The notes beneath the pieces were generated by a model. The model saw only the letters and a list, made by a program, of their open reading frames with translations, did no database searches and was not told the origin of the DNA. The position numbers and the translations under genes are program-made. A stretch of 64,000 bases of DNA from Mustelus asterias (Eukaryota), in assembly GCF_964213995.1 (NCBI RefSeq), contig NW_027590120.1:1240001-1304000 (forward strand). The letters are read 5' to 3'. The stretch's first letter is position 1. Each line of letters begins with the position of its first letter. Positions 1 through 57,500 of this stretch are shown piece by piece.

Positions 1-1151
1 ACGGCAGATCAGGCTTGAAGGGCCAAATGGCCTACTTCTGTTTCTTTGTTTCTGTGATAATTGTGCTACATACTTGAATTTATGAGGTTCAGTATTATCA
101 ATGCACTGAAATCCGGAGTTGATTCTCATTTTCTTTTATTTTTATTTTTCTTTTTAAGGATATTTTTGGAATGTCGCTTTGACGCTCGAGGTGTCATTTC
201 AACTATCGCTGCCGTTTAGCACTCTTAGCACACTTTAGCGCCCTCTGGTGAGAACTAACTGGGTATCTCTATCTAGGATTTTCTATGGATTTTCTTTTTT
301 CCCTATATTTGTGGCAGCGAAATACGCAGCGGTGTCGGACAGAAGCACAAAAGTGACGTTTAAATGAATAATTTCCTTTAATCGTTTACTCAATTACTAA
401 AGCTGTGTACTGTTCTCCAGCTGAGATATCGCCAACAATCAGTGCAATTGCAACAGTATTTAACTTAATTTCTCTTGAACATCGTCAGCTTTGGAAAAAA
501 GGGCAACATCCAAATCACCCTTCCCAATTGATGGCTCCATCTTTAGATTAAATGTCTGTGTTTTGCGTGCAAGAACATACAAATCGCTCTGCACACCAGA
601 AAGAAATAATTTCTCACTAATTACAATGTTTTATATTTCCTTTCTCTTCCCTGCAAATTGAATAGCATATTTTTCTATTCATGTCCCCAGTTGACGCGTC
701 ACATAAACTCCACATAACCCTTGGCAGGACTTTCTATCTCTCTCTACAGCTGACTATGTAACGTCACTTTGTATTATCCGAAAACTTCGATAAATTACAC
801 CTGCCCTCTCTGCATGTTAATAAAGTCCAGGTGAATAGCAGTGCTTCAGGGAGGCGGCTCACCAACACCTTTCCCGAGGATATCAAAGATGAAGAAATAA
901 GCACTGGTCTTACCAGTGACGCTGGAATTAAGTGAAAAAATTAAATGCTTAACTGAACGTAATTCAATTGGATTCACGGTTATCACTGTTCCAATGGTAA
1001 AGCTATCAGAATTATTGAGAAAATGTGGAAAAACTCATTAATTTGTGCTAGTTTCCGCTCATCATAAGGCAACACCGGCAAATTACTGGGGGCGGGGTTT
1101 AGAATAGATTCTGTCAAATACCCAACTCTTTTCACAGCGCGGAAAGAGGCA

Positions 1152-1658
1152 GCACGGCTGCTCAGCATCTGGGTAGTGTGGGGAGCATTCTTGGCTGGTA
1201 AATGGGAATAAATACATTTCATCTTTTCTCTGACTTATCAAGCATGGCTCAAATATTTCCATATTTCTGGCCTGGCCAGTTTTTATTTGATTATGTTTCT
1301 TTGTTTTTTCAGATGTGACTAATGGAGATTCTGTCACTCAGCGGTTCCCCTCAGATTATAAAACAGAAGGAGAAGCGGTGACATTGACCTGTACCTATGA
1401 TGCCACAGCCACCAATTATTACTTACACTGGTATCGACAGCGCCCAGAGAAACAACCGGAATTTATAGTGATGAAAAGCTCTTTGGACACTGAGGATACA
1501 GCAAGTTTTACTCCAATCCGTTTCTCTGCTGAGCTCCAGATCGAGAATAAAGTCACCAGTTTAACCATCTCGGGCCTGCAGGTGACTGACGCTGGCGGCT
1601 ATTACTGAGCTTTCAGTCACTCAGTGATAGAAAACATTATCACCGCCGTACAAAAGCT
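1152..1658 (+). pseudogene. TCR alpha/delta-type V segment V1 (leader 1152-1197, V exon 1313-1619, 23-RSS 1620-1658); pseudogene
   Basis: V exon reads DVTNGDSVTQ...LTCTY...LHWYRQRP...LTISGLQVTDAGGYY*, with the second Cys replaced by TGA (1606-1608). Leader (A)RLLSIWVVWGAFLA|GT has GCA where the paralogue V2 has ATG. RSS is CTCAGTG-23-ACAAAAGCT, so the heptamer CAC is lost. Confidence 0.93.
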
Positions 1659-4200: not shown

Positions 4201-4697
4201 AGTTTTTGTGCAGGAGGCAGATTGCTTTCTATCACTGTGCGTCCCAGAAAGCGCAGTAATACACGGCAGCGTCAGCAGCTGCAGATCCGAGATAGTCAAA
4301 CTGGTGTTAATTCGAGTTCTGGAATACAGTCGAGAAACGGATTTTAGCAAAATCTGCTTTAACTCCACCACCTCCTGCGTAGACCCTCAGTATATACTCG
4401 GGATGGGAGTCTGGATGTTTTCGGTACCAGAGTAAATAATAGTCACTCCATGCAGTATCTCAAAAACAGTACAAAATCACCGCTTCACCTTCCGTCTCAA
4501 CATCTGAGGACAGCGGCTGTGACAGAATCTTCATGACTCAGATCTGGAAAAGATGTTCAAACAGATAAATATTGGACTGACGTGTGCTCAAATTTCAGAT
4601 TCAACATAAGTTTTTCTTTAATGAGAAAACAAACGAGATGTCCACAAATACCTGTCAGAAATGTTTCCCACACAACCCAGATGTTGAGTATCCGCAT
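4201..4697 (-). pseudogene. TCR alpha/delta-type V segment V2 (leader 4697-4652, V exon 4543-4240, 23-RSS 4239-4201); frameshifted pseudogene
   Basis: Leader MRILNIWVVWETFLT|GT. V fragments EGEAVILYC, YLLWYRKHP, LTISDLQL, DAAVYYCAFWD lie in shifted frames with internal stops. Canonical RSS CACAGTG-23-ACAAAAACT. Confidence 0.92.
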
Positions 4698-5277
4698 TGT
4701 CTCTGTCCCCTCTGTAAAAGGGGGATCGGATATTTGAAGACACCCGTTCTGGTCCCCACATTCAATACTCTGATGACTTGCCTCCGAATGCTCACACCGT
4801 CAGTTCCGTGTCTCGCCAGTGATACCGTGAAATTGGTTATTGCTTAGCTGACTGTCACTGAATGGAAGCTCCAAAATCTGTACTCCAGTCGGTGTCTTTA
4901 TAGGACACATTTTTCTGCCATAGAAATGGGATGTGACTGAAACTTTCATTTGGTTATTATTCAGTGTGGCTTCTCGTTCTTAGTCGCAGTTTTCATGCAG
5001 CGATGATTTCAGAAGGAAGTTAAGGATTAAACATATTGCTGTGGGTCTGGAGCGAGGCTGGATAAGGATGGCAGATTCCCTTCTTTCCACAACATTGTTA
5101 ATTCAATTGGGAATTTATCCTAATACCACGGTGCCAATGTCACCACTTATTCCAGCTTTAATTTCAGATGTTGATTTGATTGATTAAATTCAATTGCCCC
5201 TGCGACAGTGAACGAAGTCCAAATCATGTAGGCGGATTATTAATCATTGTCTCCTGGATTCCAGTACCGTAAAATGT

Positions 5278-5660
5278 CACTGTGTAATCCAGCAATTAAT
5301 CCAGTTTTTTCTAGATTACTGCTCTGTAACACATCACTGTGTAATCCAACAAATAATCCAGTTCTCCTGGATTCCTGACCTGGAACATTTCACTGTGTAA
5401 TCCAACAATTAATCCAGTTCCCCTGGATTTCTGCTCTGTAACATATCACTGTATAATTCAACACTGAATCCAGTTCTCCTGGATTTCTGCCCTGTAACAT
5501 TTCACTTTGTAATCCAACAATTAATGCAGTTCTCCTCGAATTCTGCTCTGTAACATTTCACTGTGAAATGGAACCCGCTCCTGCTTCAGTGAACACACAA
5601 ACACAGCGAGGGAGCTCCCTCTTGCGGCGCAGTGAGGTAAATGACCTCTGCCTGGGAGAC
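5278..5660 (-). repeat. Short array (~6 units) of the 56-bp RSS-like satellite plus CTCF-like head sequence
   Basis: CACTGTG-type words at 5278, 5335, 5391, 5447, 5503 and 5559 (four perfect). The flank 5566-5657 is the reverse complement of 55183-55274. Confidence 0.9.
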
Positions 5661-6056
5661 CATTATTTTCTCAGATTATTGAAGAGTATATTTGCCGGAT
5701 TAGGCTGCTGCATTTTTCTTGTTGCTATTATTCTTAAGAAATATAATTTCATGCGGATGAACCTATGCACAGAACTGATAACAATTTCTGTGTGAATCTT
5801 CGTCTATTCATTTATTTGATTTTACGATCATAGAACAGCCCGTTAAATAATGCCTGTGTTACACAATGTGGCACTCGAAGAATACTTACAGAATGAGGAG
5901 TCTTAAATGTTCACGCAAAGAAAGGATGCAAATATAACTCTATTTTCACGTTGATCTGATATACTGCGGGGTTCAATGTACGTGCTCCATTTTTAAAAAA
6001 ATCTCAGATTTGTGTCTGTGTATATTGTGCGCGATAACTGCTCCCAATTGTTTGGG

Positions 6057-7061
6057 GAGCTTGTTGAAATGTTCCATATCCTGCACTTTCCTGGAACGCA
6101 GCTGAAGGAGGGACAGGTTCAGAGACACACAGAGAGGTGGCTGACACAGAGGGAGAGAGAGAGACCAAACGATCGAAGGAGACAAACAGACACAGAGAAG
6201 GTCAGAAGATCCGTGGATGCAGAAAAAGACAGACAGAGGGAGATAGAGAAACAGTCAGGTAAAGTAAGTGGGCTACAGCCAATACTGATTGGTGCCCAAT
6301 TGCTGACAGCACTGAGAGACCAGCCAATTCTGTCCTTGGTGAGCGCCCATCAATTTCTCAATAAATGAAACTTATCTATGATATGAAATTACTTCTTCAT
6401 GTCAGATTGGAAGTGTTGACATACTTTAAAAATTCTGCTCTTTTGTACAATTCTATAGTAGCAAGCAAGTTGTCCCGATGTTTCTTTACTAATCGTGTTG
6501 TCCAGTGATTCTGTGTTCAAATCGTCACTGTCTGTTCCCAACGTTCACTACCAGATATTTAATCAATCCTATATTTTGTTGCAGGAAACAATGGCAAAGA
6601 TAAACTGTCCCAGGATCTTTCTGAATTTAGGGTTCAGCAAGGACACACAATAAGACTGGATTGCAATTACTCGACAGCTGGTCGAATTCTGTTATGGTAC
6701 ATCCAGTCTGCCGGGGAAGGCTCAAAGTATCTGTTGACGTTATACAGCACGGAAACGTACTTTTCAAGTTTTCTATAGAGATTTCCTGCTGGTGTGAGCA
6801 AGAAAAACAAAATAGTTTCTTTAACTATCGCTGGGATGACCTCTGCCCACTTACTTTACCTGACTGTTTCTCTATCTCCCTCTGTCTGTCTTTTTCTGCA
6901 TCCACGGATCTTCTGACCTTCTCTGTGTCTGTTTGTCTCCTTCGATCGTTTGGTCTCTCTCTCTCCCTCTGTGTCAGCCACCTCTCTGTGTGTCTCTGAA
7001 CCTGTCCCTCCTTCAGCTGTGTTCCGGGAAAGTGCAGGATATGGAACATTTCAACAAGCTC
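6057..7061. repeat. 217-bp inverted repeat (6057-6273 / 6845-7061), 2 mismatches
   Basis: The arms are direct reverse complements; the near-identical ORF text at 6012..6368(+) and 6825..7049(-) reflects this. Confidence 0.95.
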
Positions 7062-7327
7062 TGGCTGGCTGTGGAGATTTGCATTCTAATTAGTATTCTG
7101 TAGCTTGATTTCTGTGTCTCTGTGCACTGTTGGAGAACAGATTTTCACTCCATCTGACGAAGGGGCAGCGCTCCGAAAGCTTATGGTATTTGCTACCAAA
7201 TAAGCCTGTTGGACTTTAACCTGGTGTTGTGAGACTTCTTACTATGCTCTTCTCCGACAGCACAGTGTACTTATGTGCCGTGCAGCCCACACTGCTGCAG
7301 AGATCGAGCGGATTCCGGACAATAACT
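6585..7327 (+). pseudogene. TCR alpha/delta-type V segment V3, split by an ~405-bp insertion; pseudogene
   Basis: After the ttgttgcag acceptor: GNNGKDKLSQ...IRLDCNYST...LLWYIQSAG...FL*(6776)...VSLTIAGM (to 6838). It resumes at 7247 as LFSDSTVYLCAVQP, then CACACTG-24-ACAATAACT. Confidence 0.88.
7150..7186 (+). ncRNA. Minimal type-I hammerhead ribozyme motif (Penelope-associated)
   Basis: CCAT-CTGACGA-A-GGGGC/AGC/GCTCC-GAAA-GC-TT-ATGG: conserved core, stem I CCAT/ATGG, stem II, palindromic minimal stem III. Confidence 0.7.
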
Positions 7328-7560
7328 GCAGACTGGAAGTTCCAGTTATTGATCAGCGGAGGGCGCGCTTCCTGAGGGTGGTCACAGAGCCATTAATAAA
7401 ATATCAACACAAAACACAACACCCAACAAGAGGAGGAACAACAACTGAGGAATTATGTTAGTTGCTTCTAACTAACCTAACTAACACGTGAGTGGCATGT
7501 TGGCACAGCTGCCTCACAGTGCCGGGAACGCTGTTTCGATTCCCGGCTTGGGTCACTGTC

Positions 7561-10561: not shown

Positions 10562-10939
10562 GGTTTCTGTACGAGCTCTCCATATGTTTGTTACACTGTG
10601 CCTCACGGCGCAGAGATAGGCGGCAGTGTCTGTTAGCTGGGTGTCTCTCACAGTCAGGACACTGAGTTTGTTGTCTCCCTCGACTGTGGCAGTGATCCTC
10701 CTGTGTTGATCGGTTTCTCTTGTGGCCATCACCAGATGTTGAGGTGGTTGATTTGGGAACTGTCTGTACCAATGCACCATGTTCATCACCCTGGCGCTGG
10801 TACAATTCATGGTTACGATTCCCTCTTCACTAACTTCCGTCCACTGAGGGAGCTGCAGCAACTCATGTCCAACAGTCACCGCGGTGCAGATCAGAGTGAA
10901 AAACAGCAAAAAGAATTTATAAACCCAAAGGACTATCAT
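10562..10939 (-). CDS. TCR alpha/delta-type V segment V4, open reading frame with in-frame leader and canonical 23-RSS; potentially functional
   Basis: MIVLWVYKFFLLFFTLICTAVTVG-HELLQLPQ...TMNCTS...VHWYRQFPNQPPQ...LTVRDTQLTDTAAYLCAVR. RSS CACAGTG (10600-10594)-23-ACAGAAACC (10570-10562). Confidence 0.9.
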
Positions 10940-10955
10940 ATCACTTGATTAAATT

Positions 10956-19653: not shown

Positions 19654-20799
19654 TTTCAAAATGGCTTTATTTCAAAATGATTCAAATTTCAGAATTATTC
19701 ACGTTTATCATGAAACATTCATTGAACTATTGAGTTGTTTGCGGCATTTAAGGCGGGAATAATTCAATGTCGGAATATAGAAAGTCTGTGATTGTGACTC
19801 AGGCAGGATGGATTCACTGACACAAGGAATAAGGCCAAGGGCAACATTTGTTCCCGTTATTTGAAAACTTTGCTGCTTTTCTGGGCGAACTCCAGCTCTC
19901 CATTCCTCCATTTCACCGCTCAAACTTAGACTTTCTCCATTCCGCTTTGTTAATCTCACAGTTACTGATTTCTGAATGAAAACTGCTTGCAATCAGTCGA
20001 AGTCAAAGAGTTTAGTGTTCCATTCATGGAGACGTTTTCTTGCCATTTAGCCCGAGAACGTTATCCAGAAATGAGTGATATTTCTGTCAATGCAAATGGT
20101 TAAATCTGACCCATTAACACCCAGATCTTACCTTGTATCTCTATCGGCAGCGTTTTGCATCATGTCACTGTCTTTCACTCTCTGTGTTTGTTCTTGACCT
20201 GTTGCACATGTGACATTTCCAAAACGAAGCAAAAGTGCAAATCTCACACCACCGATTCTGGCAGTGCTGCTTTGGACCAGGACGTATTGCTGGTTTGTTT
20301 CTTTAAAAAATCATTAAATCTTAATATATCGAAGGCAGCCTGCGACCCTGAAAGTGCCGAATCCTTACCACGAAACCACCAACATTCCATCTGCCTGATT
20401 CTCCCAGAGACTGATTACAGAAATGTGCACAGTGCCAATTGTCCACAGTCATAGACTCCTTACAGTCTCTTAAGATTTGAAATTGTTTATATTTTCACAT
20501 GAGCTTCCAGTGTGATGAAAGCAGAGCTGTGATAAGCTGATGTTGTTCAGTAGATTTACCGCAGTAAGGTTTATATCAGTTCGATTATAACATTGCTCTT
20601 TGAATGTGGTGAGCTACAGTGAAATTTAATGTAGTTGAAGATAGCCTTCTGACTTTTTTAAGGAGGAACAGCAAGGGCAATGTAAATATGAATTGGTGTG
20701 GGTAATTGACGGGATTGTGCAATGAGACTGATATTTCTCCCTGCTGTTCAAATTGGCGCAAGTATTGAGCGAGGATTTTCAAACGGTTGCCATGTGTTG

Positions 20800-20871
20800 G
20801 GTTTCGTGGTGTAATGGTGAGCATTCTGGACTCTGAATCCATCAATCCGAGTTCAAATCTCGGCGGAGCCT
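20800..20871 (+). tRNA. tRNA-Gln(CTG), diverged (possibly functional)
   Basis: 72 nt, GGTTTCGTGGTGTAATGG...GGACTCTGAATCC...GAGTTCAAATCTCGGCGGAGCCT. Acceptor stem pairs with G-U pairs; one anticodon-stem mismatch. Confidence 0.8.
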
Positions 20872-22209
20872 TGCTTTAATTTCCAAATGCAGATGGTTGA
20901 TTTGCTGAAGGGCGTTTCTTTTAAATTTCTCACAAAGTACTAATCAAGAGGACAATTTGTCAGCACGTTCCACTGCTATTACAATGCACATTGCTGAGCT
21001 TCTGGTGCCAGGTGCCTGCAACATCAGTGTTTTTCATCTTTTCGCTGCTCTTTAACTCCTCTGTTGAAAAAAATGAAGCAGCTGGTGTCACACAATAACA
21101 ATTCCTGTAATGTATGCTTCCCATCATTCTGACCAGATATTTACAGAATTAACCTGGCTCATGTGATAACCACCGCACTATAGAAACACGGAGATGGCCT
21201 GAGGGCAAGAAGATCCGGTTTGCTGGAGAGCAACGAGACTGGCTCCAGAAGCCCATCTTTTGCCCACAGCAATTGATATTACATTGCCTCTGCGTGTTCC
21301 TCCTGTCATAATGAATAATGATACTTCCCACTGTAGTAAAGTTTCGTAATAAAATGTTCGAGAAACAGTATTCATGACGTTTAAAACAGATCAACTGAAC
21401 ACCTGAAATTTGTGGCATTTGATCACTTTCCCCCACAAATGCTATTGCCTCGGATTCAATGCCTCAGAGCACTCACCAACGGTTCTGGCGGAAGTGATCG
21501 CTGTCAGATCTGGTGCTGCAGGGAACAGAATTAATGGAGTGGGATAGGCTCACATGTCCCATGGAGTCTCCTCCACAATTTAAGGAGATTATGACGAATC
21601 CCAGGACTCAACACCAATTTCCAACCCTATCATGATGGCCCTTCATTCCCTTAGGTTCCAAAAATATCTCCATCTGGAACTTCAATATCCTCATTAACTG
21701 AGGATCCACAGACCTCTGGCGAAGCGCCATCCAGACTCGAAACGTTGGCTTTTTTCTCTCTCCATTGATGCTGAGATGTTCCAGCATTTTCTGTTTTTGT
21801 TCCAGATTCCAGCATCCGCAGTATTTTGCTTTTCCCGCCGACAATTTACATTCCGTTTGGTTTTTTTCTATCACAACTTTGTCAACTCTTACCAACGGCT
21901 CCCACCCTCACCCCCCGCATCTCCCACACTTAAAGTATAAATCTCGCCATCTTTTCCTGTCTTCAGCTTTGATGACTGACCATACAGATTTGAAATGTTG
22001 GCTCTATTCTCTCTCCAGAGATGCCGTCATGCCTGTTGAGATTTTCGAGCATTTAAGTTTTTCTTTTAAGTTCCAGAATCTGCAGTAATTTGCTGTTGAC
22101 TGAAGCAGTCATTCGTGTTCGACATGAGGTTTTTTTCCCCCCAAACCTTTCTCGAGTATTTGAAAAACGCTGAAATGTATCGGTCAGATTAAAATGTTTG
22201 CTTGCAATT

Positions 22210-22281
22210 TCCCTGGTGGTCTAGTGGTTAGGATTTGGCGCTTTCACCGCCGCGGCCCGGGTTCGATTCCCGGTCAGGGAA
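22210..22281 (+). tRNA. tRNA-Glu(TTC), intact
   Basis: TCCCTGGTGGTCTAGTGGTTAGGATTTGGCGCTTTCACCGCCGCGGCCCGGGTTCGATTCCCGGTCAGGGAA followed by a T-run terminator. Confidence 0.96.
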
Positions 22282-22807
22282 TGTTTATTTTATTGCTGCC
22301 GACCAGCACATGACTGAGGAGGGGCTGAAATTACCTCCAGATCGAAAACAGGATTGATCATTGTGCCAGTTTAAACTACCTGAAGAAACAAAATAAACCC
22401 ACTTGCACAATCCGGTCAATTGTCCCCGGCAACTTTTCATTACATTCCCCTTGCTGCTTCCTCCTGTCAAAATGAATAATAATGCATTCTACCCCACTAA
22501 ATTTCACTGGAGCTCACCACATTGACAGATCATTCGTAACCTCTGCCTCTTCTATAGCTTCTTGTGGGAATTCTGCTGAACAACACTAGCTGATCACAGC
22601 TCTGCCGTGATTTCAGAGATTTGTATCTCGTTGATCATCATTACTGTCTCCATTGCTTCATTCCAGGTCACTGTCGCTACAGACATCGTCACACAGTCAT
22701 TCTACCTTCTGCAGTAAATGATGTACTCTTCCTTTGCTTTCAGATACTTTCACCTCCAGAAACTGATTACACGCTCAGTAAAATGTTCTGTTTAGTTGAC
22801 AGTTTAT

Positions 22808-24224: not shown

Positions 24225-24522
24225 AAAAGGAAGCGTCTCGCTGTATTGGTCAGGCTGCACTGCTGTTCCTATTCACAGGTGCTATCCCACTACTGAAGAG
24301 CACAGGGGATTTGACCTGCTCCGTTTCCGACCTGGGCCGGTTCACCCCTCCTTAGCACACCTGGTGCTCCCAGAGTCCTCTTGGAACACCATGCGGATAC
24401 TGATCTTAGTGTGGACACCCGATCGGCACAGAGAACAACAGCCCAGAACTCCCGACCTCAAGCAATCCAGCAGCCTCAGCCTCCCAGCAGCGGGATTACA
24501 GGTGCGCGCCACAACACCCGGC
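24225..24522 (-). ncRNA. RN7SL: 7SL (SRP) RNA gene
   Basis: 5' GCCGGGTGTTGTGGCGCGCACCTGTAATCCC Alu domain, S-domain CCCAGGTCGGAAACGGAGCAGG, ~298 nt ending in TTTT. Confidence 0.95.
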
Positions 24523-31677: not shown

Positions 31678-32610
31678 TGGCCGGCTCCATCCCCCCCTCA
31701 TTCCCCACCTGCCGGCTCCATCCCCCCTTCATTCCCCACCCGCCGGCTCCATCCCCCCCTCATTCCCCACCCGCCGGCTCCGTCCCCCCCTCATTCCCCA
31801 CCCGCCGGCTCCGTCCCTCCCTCATTCCCCACCCGCCGGCTCCGTCCCCCCCTCATTCCCCACCCGCCGGCTCCGTCCCTCCCTCATTCCCCACCCGCCG
31901 GCTCCATCCCCCCCTCATTCCCCACCCGCCGGCTCCATCCCCCCCCTCATTCCCCACCCGCCGGCTCCATCCCCTCCCTCATTCCCCACCCGCCGGCTCC
32001 ATCCCCCCCTCATTCCCCACCCGCCGGCTCCATCCCCCTTCATTCCCCACCCGCCGGCTCCATCCCTCCCTCATCCCCCACCCGCCGGCTCCATCCCTCC
32101 CTCATTCCCCACCCGCTGGCTCCATCCCCCCCATTCCCCACCTGCCGGCTCCATCCCCCCCTCATTCCCCACCCGCCGGCTCCATCCCCCCCTCATTCCC
32201 CACCCGCCGGCTCCATCCCCCCCTCATTCCCCACCCGCCGGCTCCATCCCCCCCTCATTCCCCACTCACCGGCTCCATCCCCCCCTCATTCCCCACCCGC
32301 CGGCTCCATCCCCCCCTCTTCCCCCACCGCCGGCTCCATCCCCCCCTCTTCCCCCACCGCCGGCTCCATCCCCCCCTCTTCCCCCACCGCCGGCTCCATC
32401 CCACCCTCATTCCCCACCCACCGGATCCATCCAAAGAACAAAGAACAATACAGCACAGGAACAGGCCCTTTGGCCCCCCAAGCCCATGCCGCTCCCTGGT
32501 CCAAACTAGACCATTCTTTTGTATCCCTCCATTCCCACCCACCGGCTCCGTCCCTCCCTCATTCCCCACCCGCCGGCTCCATCCCCCCCTCATTCCCCAC
32601 CCGCCGGTTT
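31678..32610. repeat. C-rich ~31-bp minisatellite (CCCACCCGCCGGCTCCATCCCCCCCTCATTC)n
   Basis: Periodicity read directly; G-runs on the minus strand. Confidence 0.95.
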
Positions 32611-39605: not shown

Positions 39606-41550
39606 TTCAGTGAGTTCAGGGGAATGCTCACAGAGGGAATGGAGCAGGGAGAGAGGATCCCTGGGGTGATGTTCAGTGAGTTCAGGGGGATGGAGTCAGA
39701 GGGAATGGAGCAGGGAGGGAGGATCTCTGGGGTGATGCTCAGTGAGTTCAGGAGGATGGAGTCAGAGGGAATGGGGTAGGGAGGGAGGATCCCTGGGGTG
39801 ATGCTCAGTGAGTTCAGGGGGATGGAGTCAGAGGGAATGGAGCAGGGAGGGAGGATCCCTGGGGTGATGCTCAGTGAGTTCAGGGGGATGGAGTCAGAGG
39901 GAATGGAGCAGGGAGGAAGGATCCCTGGGGTGATGCTCAGTGAGTTCAGGGGGATGGAGTCAGAGGGAATGGAGCAGGGAGGGAGGATCCCTGGGGGGAT
40001 GGAGTCAGGGGGATGGAGCAGGGAGAGAGGGTCCCTGGGATGATGTTCAGGGGGATGGAGCAGGGGGGAAGGATCCCTGGGGTGATGCTCAGTGAGTTCA
40101 GGGGGATGGAGTCAGAGGGAATGGAGCAGGGAGGGAGGATCCCTGGGGTGATGCTCTGAGTTCAGGGGGATGGAGTCAGAGGGAATGGAGCAGGGAGAGA
40201 GGATCCCTGGGGTGATGTTCAGTGAGTTCAGGGGGATGGAGTCAGAGGGAATGGAGCAGGGAGGGAGGATCCCTGGGGTGAAGGTTCAGGGGGATGGAGC
40301 AGGGGGGAAGGATCCCTGGGGTGATGCTCAGTGAGTTCAGGGGGATGGAGTCAGAGGGAATGGAGCAGGGGGGAAGGATCCCTGGGGTGATGCTCAGTGA
40401 GTTCAGGGGGATGGAGTCAGAGGGAATGGAGCAGGGAGAGAGGGTCCATGGGGTGATGCTCAGTGAGTTCAAGGGGATGGAGTCAGAGGGATTGGAGCAG
40501 GGGGGAAGGATCCCTGGGGTGATGCTCAGTGAGTTCAGGGGGATGGAGTCAGAGGGAATGGAGCAGGGAGAGAGGATCCATGGGGTGATGCTCAGTGAGT
40601 TCAGGGGGATGGAGTCAGAGGGAATGGAGCAGGGGGGAAGGATCCCTGGGGTGATGCTCAGTGAGTTCAGGGGGATGGAGTCAGAGGGAATGGAGCAGGG
40701 AGAGAGGGTCCATGGGGTGATGTTCAGTGAGTTCAGGGGGATGGAGTCAGAGGGAATGGAGCAGGGAGAGAGGGTCCATGGGGTGATGTTCAGTGAGTTC
40801 AGGGGGATGGAGTCAGAGGGAATGGAGCAGGGAGACAGGAGCCCTGGGGTGATGCTCAGTGAGTTCAGGGGGATGGAGTCAGAGGGAATGGAGCAGGGAG
40901 GGAGGATCCCTGGGGTGATGCTCAGTGAGTTCAGGGGGATGGAGTCAGAGGGAATGGAGCAGGGAGGGAGGATCCCTGGGGTGATGCTCTGAGTTCAGGG
41001 GGATGGAGTCAGAGGGAATGGAGCAGGGGGACAGGAGCCCTGGGGGGATGCTCAGTGAGTTCAGGGGGATGGAGTCAGAGGGAATGGAGCAGGGAGAGAG
41101 GATCCCTGGGGTGATGCTCAGTGAGTTCAGGGGGATGGAGTCAGAGGGAATGGAGCAGGGAGAGAGGATCCCTGGGGTGATGCTCAGTGAGTTCAGGGGG
41201 ATGGAGTCAGAGGGAATGGAGCAGGGAGAGAGGGTCCCTGGGGTGATGCTCAGTGAGTTCAGGGGGATGGAGTCAGAGGGAATGGAGCAGGGAGAGAGGA
41301 TCCCTGGGGTGATGCTCAGTGAGTTCAGGGGGATGGAGTCAGAGGGAATGGAGCAGGGAGAGAGGATCCCTGGGGTGATGCTCAGTGAGTTCAGGGGGAT
41401 GGAGTCAGAGGGAATGGAGCAGGGAGGGAGGATCCCTGGGGTGATGCTCTGAGTTCAGGGGGATGGAGTCAGAGGGAATGGAGCAGGGGGACAGGAGCCC
41501 TGGGGGGATGCTCAGTGAGTTCAGGGGGATGGAGTCAGAGGGAATGGAGC
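39606..41550. repeat. G-rich 66-bp minisatellite, ~29 copies
   Basis: Unit GGGGTGATGCTCAGTGAGTTCAGGGGGATGGAGTCAGAGGGAATGGAGCAGGGAGAGAGGATCCCT. Confidence 0.96.
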
Positions 41551-49920: not shown

Positions 49921-51365
49921 GATCAGGTCAGAGAGTAAAGACCAGTTCTGCTCAATCGCTCCTCATTGCACAGTCCTGTCATCCCAGGAAGCAGTCTGGT
50001 GAACGTTTGTTACTCGTCCTCTGGGGCAATTCTCTGGGTAAGGAGACCCAAACTCTGCAGTGTTCCACATGTGGTTTCACCAAAACTGGATACAATTTCA
50101 GAAAGCTTTCCTCACTCGGAAACTGCATCCCTGGGGAATAAAGGCTAACAGACCATCTGCATCTCTCCTTAGGGATGCTGCCAGACCTGCTGAGATTTTC
50201 CAGCATTTTCTCTTTTGGTTCCTCATTCAAGCATCTGCAGTAATTTGCTTTTATTTGGTTAGAAGTGGGGGATTTACACACAGAAAATTCAAATCAAGGA
50301 ATGGTTTGTCTCTTCTGAATTTATGTCCTGGTTTAACAGTGATGATCTTTTTGGAAACTCTATTTACAGGATACAGCAATTGGAAATTGGACATGGAAAA
50401 CGTTTTGGGGCTGCACAGTGGTTAGCACTGCTGCCACAGAGCGCCAAAGACCAGGGTTCGATTCCAGCCGCGGGCGATTGTCTGTGTGGAGTTTGCACGT
50501 TCTCCGTGTCTGCATGGATTTCTTCCCGTGGTCCAAAGATGTGCAGGTTAGGTGGATTAGTCAATAACTGCTCAAAAGATAATCCCAGAAACTACAGGTC
50601 AGTCAGTTCAATGCTAGTGATAGGGAAGATTCCTGAAACAATAATTCAGGACATATTTACTAATCACCTGAGTAAATGTGGGTTAAGAACGACAGTGTTC
50701 AGAGGAAATGGTGTTTATCGAACCTGGTTAAATATTTTGATGAGGTCACAGATCCCGTTGTTGAGGATAATGCTGTTAATGTGGTGAACATGGACTTCCA
50801 AAAAGCATCAGATAAATTGCTGCACAGCAGACATCGGAGCACAGGTATGACTCGTGGAATAAAAGGGACAGCAGCAGCATTGACACAAAATTGTCTGGGG
50901 GACAGGAAACACACAAAATACTGGTTAATGGATGTTTGGGAGTTCCTCAGGAGCTGGTGTTAACACCCAGCTCTTCCTAATGTATACAAATGACCCAGAC
51001 CTTGGTGTTCAGGGACAGTTTAGAAATTTGTGGACAGAATCTGTGTCGACCCAGACTGGGTGGCAGGTTTCCTTCCCGAAGGACATTAGTGAACCAGTTG
51101 GGTTTTTATGAGAATCCACCAGTTTTAATGGTCACTTTTCCCGGGAGCCGGCCCCGCAAATGACCAGATTCATTCAGCTCAATTTCACAAACTGCCTTTG
51201 TGTTTTTGTGGGTTCTCTCTCACTCCATTTTTTTCTGTTTTGAAACAGTTACACAGCATTTTAGAAGAGGAGGATTTGCAGTCGGGAAACTGAAACGAAA
51301 CATCACATCACAATCTGGTGGAGTTTTCCAATTTATCGTAACTTGAATATCATTTGATTTTGAAC

Positions 51366-52411
51366 ATGGAAGGAACAAGCACCATTTACAATGGGGAGAA
51401 ACCATACACGTGCTCTCTGTGTGGACGAGGCTTCAGCCAATCATCTGACCTGTTGAAACACAAATGCAGTCAATCCAGGAAGAAACCGTGGAAATGCAGG
51501 GATTGTGGGAAGGGATTCAAATCCCCGTCTGGCCTGGAAAGTCATTGGCTCAGTCACACTGGGGAGAAACCGTTCACCTGCTTCGAATGTGGGAAGGGAT
51601 TCACTCGTCAATCCTACCTTCTGATACATCAGCGACTTCACACTGGGGAAAGGCCGTTCACCTGTTCTGTGTGTGGGAAGGGATTCATTCAGTCATCCAC
51701 CCTGTTGAATCACCAGCGAGTTCACACTGAGGAGAGACCATTTAAATGCTCAGACTGTGGGAAGTGTTACAAATGTTCTGGGGAACTGATGCGCCATCAA
51801 CGTGTTCACAGCAATGAGAGGCCATTCACCTGTTCCATGTGTGGGAAAGGATTTACTCAGCAATACAAACTGCAGACACACCAGCGAGTTCACACTGATG
51901 AGAGACCTTTTACATGTACAGACTGTGGAAAGCGCTTTAAAAGTTCCCAGGACTTGATGCAGCATCAACCTGTTCACACTGATGAGAGACCGTTCAGATG
52001 CTCTCACTGTGGGTCTGCATTCAAGCGATCGTCTCACCTGACTGTGCACCAGCAAATTCACACTGGGGAGAGGCTGTTCACCTGCCCTGAGTGTGGAAAG
52101 GGATTTACTCAGTCATCCGTCCTTCTGACACCCAGTGTGTTCAAACTGGGGGGAGACCATTCATCTGCTCTGAGTGTGGGAAGGGATTCCCTTCCTCATC
52201 CAAACTTCTGATGCACCAGCACGTTCACACTGGGGAGAGACCGTTCACCTGCTCTGTGTGTGGGAAGGGTTTCACTCAGTCATCGAACCTACTGACACAC
52301 CAGCGAGTTCACACTGGGGAGAGGCCATTCACATGTGCTGAATGTGGGAAGGGATTTGCTTATTTTTCTGTACTGATGAGACACCAACAAGCTCACAAAC
52401 AATTACAATGA
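51366..52411 (+). pseudogene. C2H2 zinc-finger gene ZNF-C, paralogue of ZNF-B with a single frameshift near 52130
   Basis: ORF 51354..52211 continues as 52091..52411; shares intron and 3' flank with ZNF-B. It could still encode a truncated ~9-finger protein. Confidence 0.85.
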
Positions 52412-52694
52412 TTGGATTTTGCTGTCAGTGACATCCAGGATTATGTTCGTTGGGGTCTGTTGGATGATGTCAATAAATTCCAGCCAGTTGTTTGGGCTAA
52501 TATTGTGAATAAAAGTCAAATAAATTAGTTTTATATTACTATTTTTATATTGAACACACTGTGTTGCATCTATTTAATGTCTCTAACTCCATTTGGATCC
52601 TTTTGAAGGGCCCTCCCTCTCCCCAGTCTTCTCCATCCTCACCTCCAACAACAAGTGTGAGGAGCGCATGGAGCTTCTTTGTCACTAAGATTGA

Positions 52695-53075: not shown

Positions 53076-55210
53076 AAAAGCTGCCTCTGTTGCTTCCCTT
53101 CCTCCCACGAGCCCACCCTTGACCCCGGTGTCTTTGTTCCCCTCCTGCCCATCTCTCATTACAACTTCCAAAATCCCTGTCGTCTCCCAAATCTCTGCCC
53201 ATATGTCCTGAAATTCCCTGTGTGAATCCCTCTGATTACATTTGTCTTTCACACAGTATCAAACAGCTCTTACCAAAGTCTCAAATTACTGTGTGAATAT
53301 GACTCGGGTAAGTTATCTGTCACTGTCCTTTTTAGTCAGTCTGCAGTTATTGACACCATTGACCAAAGCATCTTCCTCCAGTGCCTCTCCATTGTTGTCC
53401 AGCTGGGTGGGACTGCACACTTCGGATTAATTTCTTTTCTGATTATAGTCAGAGAATCACCGGCAGTCATTGTGATTATTACAGACAGAGAACAAGTGAA
53501 TAGAGGGAGCAAAGTAAATGGGGAAAGAGACAGTGAGAGTGAATGGGATGGAAGTTCGTAAACTGAGACAAAGAGAATCAGATTGAGACAGAAAATGGGG
53601 TCAACATTGTTCCAAAGAGAAGAGATTAATACTTTTCAAACCTTCCTGATCATTATAACTTATCAATTTCTGTAAAATATTTTGAGTGAATGGAACAAGG
53701 CCTGGATATGAGATTCTGAAACTCCCTCCCTAACTGTCCAGATTAAAGGTGTTTGTTAAGGTCTGTCTCTCCAAACAAGGTTTTGGCCATCCATCCTAAT
53801 ATTGTGCTCTGTGACCCAGTAATTCTAGTTGCTGATCTATCAGTAATGGACTTGCTGCCGTCTGGAACAAAACTGTTTTCACCACTAAGTCTCCGCTGTG
53901 ATGTAATAGTCTCTATGACATCATCGCAGCAGGACTGGATGACATCATCAGAGTCCATTGTTTCTGAATGATCCACATCAATAACAACAGGAAATACTCA
54001 TCAAGCTGAGCACATTATCTAGGCTGACACTGCAGTCTGACACTGAGGGACTGCTGCACTCTGACATAAACTGTCCTTCACATGGAGCTTGTGGAGGCTC
54101 TGGCCACAATCTTCCAATCCTTCTCATAGAGTTGTGGTGCCAAAAGGCTGAGAGATTGGAAATGTTACATCCCTGTTCAAAAAATTACAGAACAATCATC
54201 TTAACATCAGCGGTGGAGAAAAATGAAACCAATAATCTGGGGCACAATCAACTGGTACTTGGAAAAGTGTGGATTCTTATTGTCAGCATTTTCTGTTTTA
54301 ATGCTGAAAACTTCCCTGGATCTCAAGGCTGGGAAAGACATTCTGGAAGGTCATCCCCCCCCATTCCTCTCTCTATCCCTCCTCCCATCCCTCCCTACAA
54401 CAAGAACCATTCACTCTGCACCGCAGTTTCACCCTCATTCCCCCAGTTTGTATTCCAGCCTTTACCACACCCACTCTGCTCCCAGATACTTCACACCATT
54501 AGATATTACAATTCAAACTTTATAATCTCTACAATTTAATATTTGTTCAGACAGCAGACAAATCATCAATTCCACTCCCACCCTGAGCTATGGGGATATC
54601 TTTATACATTATCTCATTTCACAATAAAACTCACACACTGAATTTCAGATTTGCTTCTGTTGTTTTAATTTGCCCAGCAGATTATTTGGAGTGAGACTGA
54701 CATCAACCCTTCATGGTCTCAGTCTGTCTCTGTGTTTGTGAGAGTGTCTGAGATAGTGTGTGTGTCTGAGCGTGTGTATGTATGAGTGTGTATCTGTGCG
54801 TGCTGTGTGTGTGTTTGTGTGAGATTATAGAAAGATAGAAACTAGAAGCAGGAGGAAGCCATTCGGCCCTTCGAGCCTGCTCCGCCATTCATTTTGATCA
54901 TGGCTGATCATCGAATTCAATATTCTGATCCCCCTTCTTCCCACACCTTTAGCCCCAAGAGCTATATCTAATTTATTCTTGGAATCATATGTATGTGTCT
55001 GCATTTTTCTGAGTATTTGTGTGTCTATGAGTTTGTCTGTATTTGTTTCCGAGATTGATATCAGTTATGAGAATAGATTCGTCTGCATTAAAATATATTA
55101 AAATAAGAATAGTAGGAATAAGAAAAATACAGCAGCACAATCCTCCAACAGGATCCTTCAGTAATCTGAGAATTCAGTGACTTCCCAGGCAGAGGCCATT
55201 TACCTCACAT

Positions 55211-55228
55211 CGCCACAAGAGGGAGCTC
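55211..55228 (+). promoter_or_regulatory. CTCF-like motif CGCCACAAGAGGGAGCTC at the head of the satellite (second copy at 5612-5630, minus strand)
   Basis: Close match by eye to the CTCF core CCACCAGGGGGCGC. It overlaps the perfect palindrome GAGGGAGCTCCCTC. Confidence 0.6.
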
Positions 55229-55271
55229 CCTCGCTGTGTTTGTGTGTTCACTGCAGCAGGAGCGGGTTCCA

Positions 55272-57500
55272 TTACACAGTGAAATGTAACAGAGCAGAAA
55301 TCCAGGGGAACTGGATTAATTGTTGGATTACACAGTGAAATGTAACAGAGCAGAAATCCAGGGGAACTGGATTAATTGTTGGATTACACAGTGAAATGTA
55401 ACAGAGCAGAAATCCAGGGGAACTGGATTAATTGTTGGATTACACAGTGATATGTTACAGAGCAGAAATCCAGGAGAACTGGATTAATTGTTGGATTACA
55501 CAGTGAAATGTAACAGAGCAGAAATCCAGGGGAACTGGATTAATTGTTGGATTACACAGTGAAATGTAACAGAGCAGAAATCCAGGGGAACTGGATTAAT
55601 TGTTGGATTACACAGTGAAATGTAACAGAGCAGAAATCCAGGGGAACTGGATTAATTGTTGGATTACACAGTGATATGTAACAGAGCAGTAATCCAGGGG
55701 AACTGGATTAATTGTTGGATTACACAGTGACGTATTAAAGAGCAGTAATCCAGGAGAACTGGATTAATTGTTAGATTACACAGTGATATTTTACAGAGCA
55801 GAAATCCAGGGGAACTGGATTAATTGTTAGATTACACAGTGATATGTTACAGAGCAGTAATCCAGGAGAACTGGATTAATTGTTGGATTTCACAGTGATA
55901 TGTTACAGAGCAGTAATCCAGGGGAACTGGATTAATTGTTAGATTACACAGTGATATGTAACAGAGCAGAAATCCAGGGGAACTGGATTAATTGTTAGAT
56001 TACACAGTGATATGTTACAGAGCAGTAATCCAGGAGAACTGGATTAATTGTTGGATTTCACAGTGATATGTTACAGAGCAGTAATCCAGGGAACTGGATT
56101 AATTGTTAGATTACACAGTGATATGTTACAGAGCAGTAATCCAGGGAACTGGATTAATTGTTAGATTACACAGTGATATGTTACAGAGCAGTAATCCAGG
56201 GAACTGGATTAATTGTTAGATTACACAGTGATATGTTACAGAGCAGTAATCCAGGGAACTGGATTAATTGTTAGATTACACAGTGATATGTTACAGAGCA
56301 GAAATCCAGGGGAACTGGATTAATTGTTGGATTACACAGTGATATGTTACAGAGCAGTAATCCAGGGAACTGGATTAATTGTTAGATTACACAGTGATAT
56401 GTTACAGAGCAGTAATCCAGGGAACTGGATTAATTGTTGGATTACACAGTGATATGTTACAGAGCAGTAATCCAGGGAACTGGATTAATTGTTAGATTAC
56501 ACAGTGATATGTTACAGAGCAGAAATCCAGGGGAACTGGATTAATTGTTGGATTACACAGTGATATATTACAGAGCAGAAATCCAGGAGAACTGGATTAA
56601 TTGTTGGATTACACAGTGATATGTAACAGAGCAGAAATCCAGGAGAACTGGATTAATTGTTAGATTACACAGTGATATGTTACAGAGCAGAAATCCAGGG
56701 GAACTGGATTAATTGTTGGATTACACAGTGATATGTTACAGAGCAGTAATCCAGGAGAACTGGAGTAATTGTTGGATTACACAGTGAAATGTAACAGAGC
56801 AGAAATCCAAGAGAACTGGATTAATTGTTGGATTACACAGTGATATGTTACAGAGCAGAAATCCAGGAGAACTGGATTAATTGTTGGATTACACAGTGAT
56901 ATGTTACAGAGCAGTAATCCAGGAGAACTGGATTCATTGTTGGATTACACAGTGATATGTTACAGAGCAGTAATCCAGGAGAACTGGATTCATTGTTGGA
57001 TTACACAGTGATATGTTACAGAGCAGTAATCCAGGGGAACTGGATTAATTGTTGGATTACACAGTGATATGTAACAGAGCAGAAATCCAGGAGAACTGGA
57101 TTAATTGTTGGATTACACAGTGATATGTAACAGAGCAGAAATCCAGGGGAACTGGATTAATTGTTGGATTACACAGTGATATGTAACAGAGCAGAAATCC
57201 AGGGGAACTGGATTAATTGTTAGATTACACAGTGATATGTCACAGAGCAGCAATCCAGGAGAACTGGATTAATTGTTAGATTACACAGTGACATATTACA
57301 GAGCAGCAATCCAGGGGAACTGGATTAATTGTTAGATTACACAGTGATATGTTACAGAGCAGCAATCCAGGAGAACTGGATTAATTGTTAGATTACACAG
57401 TGACATATTACAGAGCAGTAATCCAGGGGAACTGGAGTAATTGTTAGATTACACAGTGATATGTTACAGAGCAGAAATCCCGGAGAACTGGATTAATTGT
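55272..57500 (+). repeat. 56-bp tandem satellite, ~40 copies (TTACACAGTGATATGTTACAGAGCAG[A/T]AATCCAGG[A/G]GAACTGGATTAATTGTT[G/A]GA)
   Basis: Periodicity read directly. Each unit contains CACAGTG and an internal inverted repeat AATCCAG...CTGGATT. Confidence 0.97.

Follow-up and report, generated by a model that had tools for sequence, protein, structure and literature searches.

A duplicated element with a predicted CTCF site and a 56-bp minisatellite among TCR-alpha-like V segments of the shark Mustelus asterias

Introduction

Hypervariable minisatellites (VNTRs) in segmental duplications are a known kind of repeat, and CTCF sites are known at V-alpha promoters. Furthermore, the kappa-deleting element and deltaRec/psiJ-alpha are each a single near-consensus RSS with documented joins. 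In mammalian Igh, RSS-associated CTCF sites lie 17-19 bp (mouse) and 19 or 48 bp (human) beyond the V nonamer and share one orientation, while V regions also have upstream and intergenic CTCF sites; the CTCF consensus is given as CCASYAGRKGGCRS (PMC6746451). The barriers IGCR1, INT1-2 and Sis/Cer each consist of a single element located between V and (D)J arrays (PMC7515734 and PMC4995090), and according to the convergent-site rule divergent motifs would not loop together (PMC7515734).

The DNA analysed here, referred to as the window, is a stretch of 64,000 nucleotides from Mustelus asterias, held by a 2.9-Mb contig (C88) of a 3.68-Gb genome. An earlier note on this DNA had described a module with a CTCF-like motif and RSS-like repeat units, present as an inverted pair, and had proposed a mobile or duplicated ‘CTCF + 12-RSS array’ cassette that could shape or terminate V rearrangement. 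We refer to the unique part of this module as the head, to the repeated part as the array, and to its two occurrences in the window as copies A and B (Table 1).

The module resembles the RSS-associated elements of Igh in having a CTCF-type motif 48 bp from a heptamer within an antigen-receptor V region. However, this motif stands on the coding side of the heptamer and not 17-19 or 48 bp downstream of a nonamer, the RSS-like word is part of a minisatellite, and there is no common orientation, the two window motifs being opposite and the heads of C88 dividing into four and two. The geometry of motif and RSS is not that of mammalian Igh, on which the earlier note had drawn. It should be added that 7 of the 10 listed heads upstream of the J-alpha cluster on contig C71 point towards it. 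With the upstream and intergenic sites of V regions the module shares the placement of V-linked heads, about 1 kb upstream of a V exon and often between two head-to-head V’s, but most sampled heads flank ZNF or GPCR-like genes, and the head motif is a predicted one. As with the barrier elements, CTCF-type (predicted) sites are found within an antigen-receptor chromosome region; unlike them, no head was detected in the 200 kb around the J-alpha cluster (C71:18.29-18.49 Mb, L131-L150), and the window motifs are divergent and 50 kb apart, so that under the convergent-site rule (PMC7515734) they would not form a mutual loop.

Results and discussion

Genomic setting

The window contains six TCR alpha/delta V-like exons in mixed orientation, with RSS spacers of 22-24 bp, taken as V-set on the strength of three that were scanned (3/3 assigned to V-set); C2H2 zinc-finger (ZNF) genes come after them. 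V4 is the only one of the six that looks intact, V2, V3 and V5 being broken and V6 having no CAC. V1 has no leader ATG, shows a stop codon where the second Cys should be, and has the heptamer CTCAGTG, without CAC, in its 23-RSS at 1620; these faults were not recorded in the earlier note. The RSS of V3, at 7288, reads CACACTG-24-ACAATAACT. The insert of V3 includes a 99% inverted copy of 6057-6273 and is skipped by contigs of the runs X1-X3.

In the 464 kb around the window, 15 V-like matches form three islands interspersed with ZNF and GPCR-like genes. Every RSS-bearing V of this region has a spacer of 22-24 bp, and neither a strict 12-RSS nor a J motif was found in it. Between the V island of the window and its ZNF genes are situated a 7SL (SRP) RNA gene (24225-24522, minus strand, 250 bits) and genes for tRNA-Gln(CTG) (20799-20872, plus) and tRNA-Glu(TTC) (22209-22282, plus). 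The window also holds two more minisatellites, at 31680-32607 and 39607-41550 (31-bp and 66-bp units), and the 66-bp type also adjoins heads in L062 and L063.

The J-alpha cluster (36 J motifs in 44 kb) is located on C71 at 18.37-18.41 Mb, a contig separate from that of the window, and has ZNF genes as its direct neighbours, beginning 10 kb upstream. No V match was obtained in the 200 kb around it; TRAV-like exons were seen on both sides, at 17.38 and 19.40 Mb. Islands of TCR-alpha V are scattered among ZNF, GPCR-like and IgH clusters on this Ig/TCR chromosome. Along the 20 Mb of C71, TRAV islands, ZNF and GPCR-like genes are interleaved with clusters that we take to be IgH V-D-D-J and IgNAR-like, and scaffolds C87-C154 share the modules of C71 with the same interleaving of presumed Ig, TRAV, ZNF and GPCR-like genes. 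A search for the TCR-alpha constant region with Pfam PF09291 gave no match; since control genomes likewise gave none, this result carries no weight.

Table 1. Positions of the features of the module and its surroundings in the window
Feature	Position	Strand	Remarks
V1, TCR alpha/delta-like V pseudogene (V-set)	1315..1658	+	V exon 1315-1619
V2, V pseudogene	4201..4697	-	stop and frameshifts; leader intact; 23-RSS at 4239
Array A	5250..5569	-	56-bp period, 5.7 copies, six decayed minisatellite units
Stretch skipped in contigs of coded runs X1-X4	5554..5800		247 bp; first heptamer and whole head
Head A	5570..5788	-	~220 bp; head-family member
Copy-A CTCF-like motif CCGCAAGAGGGAGC	5614..5627	-	3 mismatches to CCASYAGRKGGCRS
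V3, V pseudogene	6586..7327	+	exon split by a 408-bp insert at 6836-7243
Separate CTCF-like motif TCAGCGGAGGGCGC	7353..7366	+	25 bp beyond V3 nonamer
V4, open V exon	10562..10948	-	good 23-RSS CACAGTG-23-ACAGAAACC
C2H2 zinc-finger gene exon	51348..52432	+	frameshifted; 2.8 kb before head B
Head B	55051..55270	+	subfamily between tandem ZNF genes, inside multi-kb segmental duplications
Copy-B CTCF-like motif CCACAAGAGGGAGC	55213..55226	+	2 mismatches to CCASYAGRKGGCRS
Array B	55271..57500	+	39.9 copies (40 units), 95% matches between copies

The inverted pair

Duplication of the module is far beyond chance: 5239-5788 and 55051-55600 are homologous in inverted orientation at 465 of 551 positions (84%), and beyond this pair there is a family of at least 167 heads. 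Thus the inverted copy and its six 56-bp units were recovered as claimed, while the unique flank, previously put at about 90 bp, measures ~220 bp by the span of the homology. Both copies have the CTCF-like motif near the first heptamer, at 48 bp from CACAGTG rather than the 45 bp given before. In agreement with the earlier description, the palindrome GAGGGAGCTCCCTC (5608-5621 and 55219-55232) overlaps both motifs, the motifs diverge at a distance of 49.6 kb, and the units of array A face the V at 1315-1619 (+) in deletional geometry. V1 is the only V in that geometry; V2 shares the orientation of the units (inversional geometry).

The heptamer-like words of array A are found at 5565, 5509 (CAAAGTG), 5453 (TACAGTG), 5397, 5341 and 5284. 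Nonamer-like forms of the units include GCAGAAATC and GCAGTAATC, the former occurring in 20 of the 40 units of array B, the other 20 of which have lost A5.

Head A, about 1 kb upstream of the V3 exon, is part of a 1.4-1.5 kb block extending into V3. The alignment of copy A with two other V-flanking loci extends from the array through V3 (1,404-1,498 bp, 69-70%), a colinearity that marks the copy as an old component of a V 5' flank rather than a recently inserted one. The subfamily of copy B is young, and copy B and its relatives have over 1.4 kb of flanking sequence in common at 95-98%.

Contigs from all four runs X1-X4 (at most three samples of one study, with scattered substitutions and indels relative to the window) otherwise cover V1 to V3 and pass directly from 5553 to 5801. 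Support on the short side of this joint amounts to 53 letters in X1 and X4 and 22 in X2 and X3, and was repeated for X1 only; the contigs have no cover at 5692-5779, and only the joint across counts as evidence. These animals may belong to another species. As array, head and V3 are colinear in old paralogues, the skipped head is most simply explained as a loss, and the head of copy A would then be dispensable.

The head family

The head pattern matched at least 167 places in the genome and its reversed control none. Among the 100 matches listed (the remaining 67 being two-mismatch matches), all were on C71 or on contigs C87 and higher and none on the large chromosomes, unlike the SINE- and LINE-like repeats of the window. 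The listed heads thus belong to the immune-gene chromosome and to scaffolds sharing its modules; this bears out the family link to the immune region and leaves room for a role in immune loci. BLAST with the head returned 212 candidates, 40 of which were scored, recent copies being 93-99% identical.

From 0 to ~90 repeat units are attached to the heads. We inspected 65 distinct heads in 55 fetched 10-kb stretches, a chosen and not random sample that includes near-identical duplicates or haplotigs, and found an adjacent array at 36 and none at 29. Exons within 5 kb were ZNF at 34, V at 14 and GPCR-like at 9 of the 65; array and V were combined at 8, array and ZNF at 17. None of the array-less heads examined abutted a V exon. 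Array-less heads were also seen 0.3-1.1 kb behind GPCR-like exons.

All nine stretches picked for two nearby head matches show the same arrangement, a single ZNF exon towards which one head with an array and one without are both directed. In L051-L059, L032 and L039, single ZNF exons stand between convergent heads that are 5-8 kb from each other. Such pairs were also considered as RAG-type transposon ends around ZNF genes, an idea rejected on account of the second head having neither array nor RSS. Conversely to the array-less heads, arrays occur without any head within 10 kb (4/4 fetched, on C38, C39, C41 and C45). One of these headless arrays directly adjoins an exon fragment, presumably SRCR-like (L177, L160).

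The family has spread by segmental duplication, its copies sharing kilobases of flank and travelling in larger duplicated blocks with V, ZNF or GPCR-like genes. At the ends of copies A and B neither target-site duplication nor terminal inverted repeats were found, the longest common word being 5 bp at non-matching positions, and the homology of heads ends anywhere from -35 to beyond -1,486. The mobile cassette of the earlier note was therefore not upheld: head and array are separable both ways, and discrete ends and target-site duplications are missing.

In a tree of 39 heads, those of like context group together (16 label changes vs a shuffled mean of 27.2). When midpoint-rooted, the tree places copy A with ZNF and GPCR heads, apart from other V-pair heads, and hence does not fix an origin in V flanks first. 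It is nevertheless likely that the head arose in the 5' flank of a TCR-alpha-like V lineage. Rfam and ARAGORN yielded no match at the module. A literature search found no title or abstract opening describing such an element, and nothing on it was found in PMC5931798.

The CTCF-type motif

With up to two mismatches, the window has 13 matches to CCASYAGRKGGCRS versus 11.2 expected, which means that the motif match alone is not beyond chance there. This consensus scan picked up copy B but not copy A. A relaxed CTCF pattern of our own (6 in 464 kb vs 1.7 in shuffles) had been written to fit the heads and was left unused.

Homologues were also collected with the upstream flank alone, whereby 9 of 47 matches, short, partial and ending before the motif, were dropped. 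Within two mismatches of the consensus were 36 of the 38 distinct homologues, 16 of them at one; copy A and a copy with a short deletion, both at three, are the weakest two. Two homologues of ~70% identity, both missed by the head pattern, have no palindrome, donor-like word or array and keep a CTCF-type motif in different letters, as CCACTAGATGGAGC and CCGCCAGATGGCCC; they are the strongest argument for a CTCF site. Another head form of the family is CCACCAGAGGGAGC. On the tree, the degenerate fifth position changed four times (A, C, T), fixed positions 0.25 times on average and flanks 2.1-2.4 times. Substitutions thus fall on degenerate motif positions, a conservation that is partly inflated since the pattern by which most heads were gathered itself spans the motif. 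At 1.1 changes per column, conservation of the 18 bases upstream of the core comes close to that of the motif. From the conservation among homologues and the changes at the degenerate position, the head motif is probably a CTCF site, in line with the earlier reading.

All of this could instead be neutral, the head being a local repeat or a non-autonomous transposon remnant and its motif not bound. The three mismatches of copy A, the absence of an excess of consensus matches in the window and the loss of the head in other animals would agree with that, as would the near-identity of recent copies, among which shared motifs need no selection. However, distant homologues keep the motif through consensus-permitted changes while their flanks diverge to 70%, no listed copy resides on large chromosomes as the SINE- and LINE-like repeats do, and neither terminal repeats or target-site duplication nor an Rfam match were seen at the head; we consider neutrality throughout unlikely.

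We judge it distinctly unlikely that the head serves as a non-coding first exon or as part of a promoter and that its conserved bases reflect splicing or transcription start and not CTCF. This idea draws on the other strand, which reads 71 nt and then a donor-like GAG/GTAAAT, which hardly varies within the close family (positions -14 to -5) and which at copy A points towards V3, ~1 kb away. Yet the two most distant homologues lose this word and keep the CTCF-type motif, and in ZNF units it is directed away from the gene or located past the gene's 3' end. Moreover, there are stops, and no reading frame is kept across subfamilies, so that the head is neither a J nor a leader exon. Its reading as a J or D segment was rejected (no FGXG, phase-1 stops, no 23-RSS on the far side).

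The 56-bp array

The array is made of head-to-tail units of tens of bp, the copy number of which varies between loci, as in minisatellites; the unit has 2,926 exact matches in the genome. It resembles VNTRs in its 56-bp unit, its 0 to ~90 copies per locus, its interspersed variants and its occurrence at several unlinked sites, and differs from them in that the unit contains a heptamer and a nonamer-like word at 12 bp. Like the kappa-deleting element and deltaRec/psiJ-alpha, it offers an RSS-like word without a coding segment that faces a V-type RSS of the other spacer class; unlike them, it consists of thousands of weak units, and no joint was found.

In every unit a heptamer-like word is followed at 12 bp by a word with 3-4 mismatches to ACAAAAACC, that is, not a close match. 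The CAC of the heptamer is kept in 4 of the 6 units of copy A, and copy B has 40 CACAGTG; the two copy-A units with the best nonamer are those without CAC. At nonamer position 8 the units have T, found in 1 of 41 references, vs C in 37 of 41, and at position 5 many units have T (0/41 references). Five copy-A units, the sixth having been left out of the scoring, reached 10.9-12.9 bits against a leave-one-out median of 22.8 and outscored one of the 41 references. This gap is widened by the reference matrix (41 distinct 12-RSS of the same genome, 26 J-alpha and 15 from Ig loci), the entries of which were chosen by consensus likeness, 2 of the 15 from Ig loci probably not being real RSS. Units of copy B reach 17.6 bits, close to the lower quartile of the references (18.4), and among the other CACAGTG sites of the 464 kb, 41 of 641 attain such scores. 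Degenerate forms are frequent among real J-alpha RSS of this genome (GCAAGAACT, TCAGAAACC). Neither FGXG nor a conserved frame is present in the 71 nt that follow the first heptamer, while real J-alpha segments of this genome carry both.

Signal joints at array units were absent from 13 genome matches to a pattern of a unit fused to a second heptamer: by their matched letters 12 continue as array variants (four were opened), and one has no array. Around real RSS, 2 of the 20 fetched stretches did show germline signal joints; since deletional joints are lost, the absence of joints at array units is weak evidence. Perfect head-to-head heptamer joints were noticed in clusters taken as IgNAR-like and light-chain (L119 near 4997, L121 near 4778).

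These data bear on the possibility that the CTCF site stalls loop extrusion and presents a dense 12-RSS array to RAG, which we regard as very improbable; the consequence that nearby 23-RSS V’s would be joined to the array and thereby deleted, inverted or inactivated appears just as improbable. It would be in keeping with units that have CACAGTG with a nonamer-like word at exactly 12 bp, and with a family on the chromosome of the IgH clusters and the J-alpha cluster. With V spacers of 22-24 bp and no strict 12-RSS or J in the 464 kb, arrays are the densest 12-type words near these V’s, and in mouse Tcrd RAG off-target joins at convergent CAC motifs account for ~1% of junctions (PMC4995090). On the other hand, no copy-A unit joins CAC with the best nonamer and V1 lacks CAC; in other subfamilies the nonamers are worse, or the unit adjacent to the head has a spacer of 10 bp; a V lies within 5 kb of just 8 of 36 array-bearing heads; none of the 13 pattern matches was a signal joint; and the joint 5553-5801 breaks within a spacer, not at a heptamer border. 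In addition, CA-rich satellites on C31, C36 and C98 outscore the units as 12-RSS and have no V exon in those 10-kb stretches. Dozens of near-consensus 12-RSS words were seen in these satellites (L120, L123, L124).

As its units are poor 12-RSS and the V1 heptamer that they face is broken, an ‘array of 12-RSS’ shaping or terminating V rearrangement was not sustained. The 56-bp repeat is likely an ordinary passenger minisatellite and not a rearrangement-steering device; units may see low-level use as cryptic RSS, by analogy with CAC motifs in mouse Tcrd.

RSS-adjacent motifs of the V3 lineage

The separate motif downstream of V3 is, by predicted position, a better mammalian-style RSS-adjacent motif than that of copy A. 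Among 38 RSS-bearing V exons in the fetched DNA, four are followed by a consensus match in the 300 bp past the nonamer (0.057 per 300 bp in the background), and three of these matches lie forward at 25, 25 and 27 bp. The three V’s are the duplicate of V3 on C124, one on C815 and one on C88, ~58 kb to the left of the window. V3 itself was missed by the scan script because of its insert, the motif still being there. All these RSS-adjacent motifs come from one V lineage and are therefore not independent, and the L065 homologue of this lineage has lost the motif. These motifs, that at L175 near 278 among them, are on the same strand as the V. Upstream of V exons, one-mismatch CTCF-like motifs were noted at 238-251 (-), ~1.06 kb before V1, and 470-490 bp before two V’s of another lineage, one in L173 and one 66 kb to the left of the window.

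Conclusions

Most likely, there is little unusual in the module, in which a CTCF-type site and a minisatellite have been copied about within a duplication-rich immune region. Specifically, we consider it probable that it is a ~220-bp duplicated element with a predicted CTCF site, to which a functionless 56-bp passenger minisatellite is attached. CTCF would bind the head motif and anchor or insulate local loops for V, ZNF and GPCR-like units, the convergent head pairs bracketing single ZNF genes being an example of such loop anchors. The array would grow and shrink by slippage or unequal exchange in neutral turnover, and its RSS likeness would amount to that of a weak cryptic RSS, with RAG cleavage no more frequent than off-target cutting. 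Copy A would be a decaying member of the family, with the weakest motif, broken heptamers and pseudogene neighbours, lost elsewhere.

A far-reaching version, in which at least 167 CTCF elements partition the Ig/TCR chromosome and convergent mini-loops wall off single ZNF genes, while the attached arrays (up to 90 cryptic 12-RSS) act as RAG sinks destroying or diverting V rearrangements, seems to us highly improbable; if arrays did trap RAG, this would be a new way to prune the V repertoire. One outcome is a collection of candidate CTCF sites along a shark antigen-receptor chromosome. Furthermore, the position of the V3-family motif, 25-27 bp past the nonamer, suggests that CTCF sites next to RSSs may be older than mammals.
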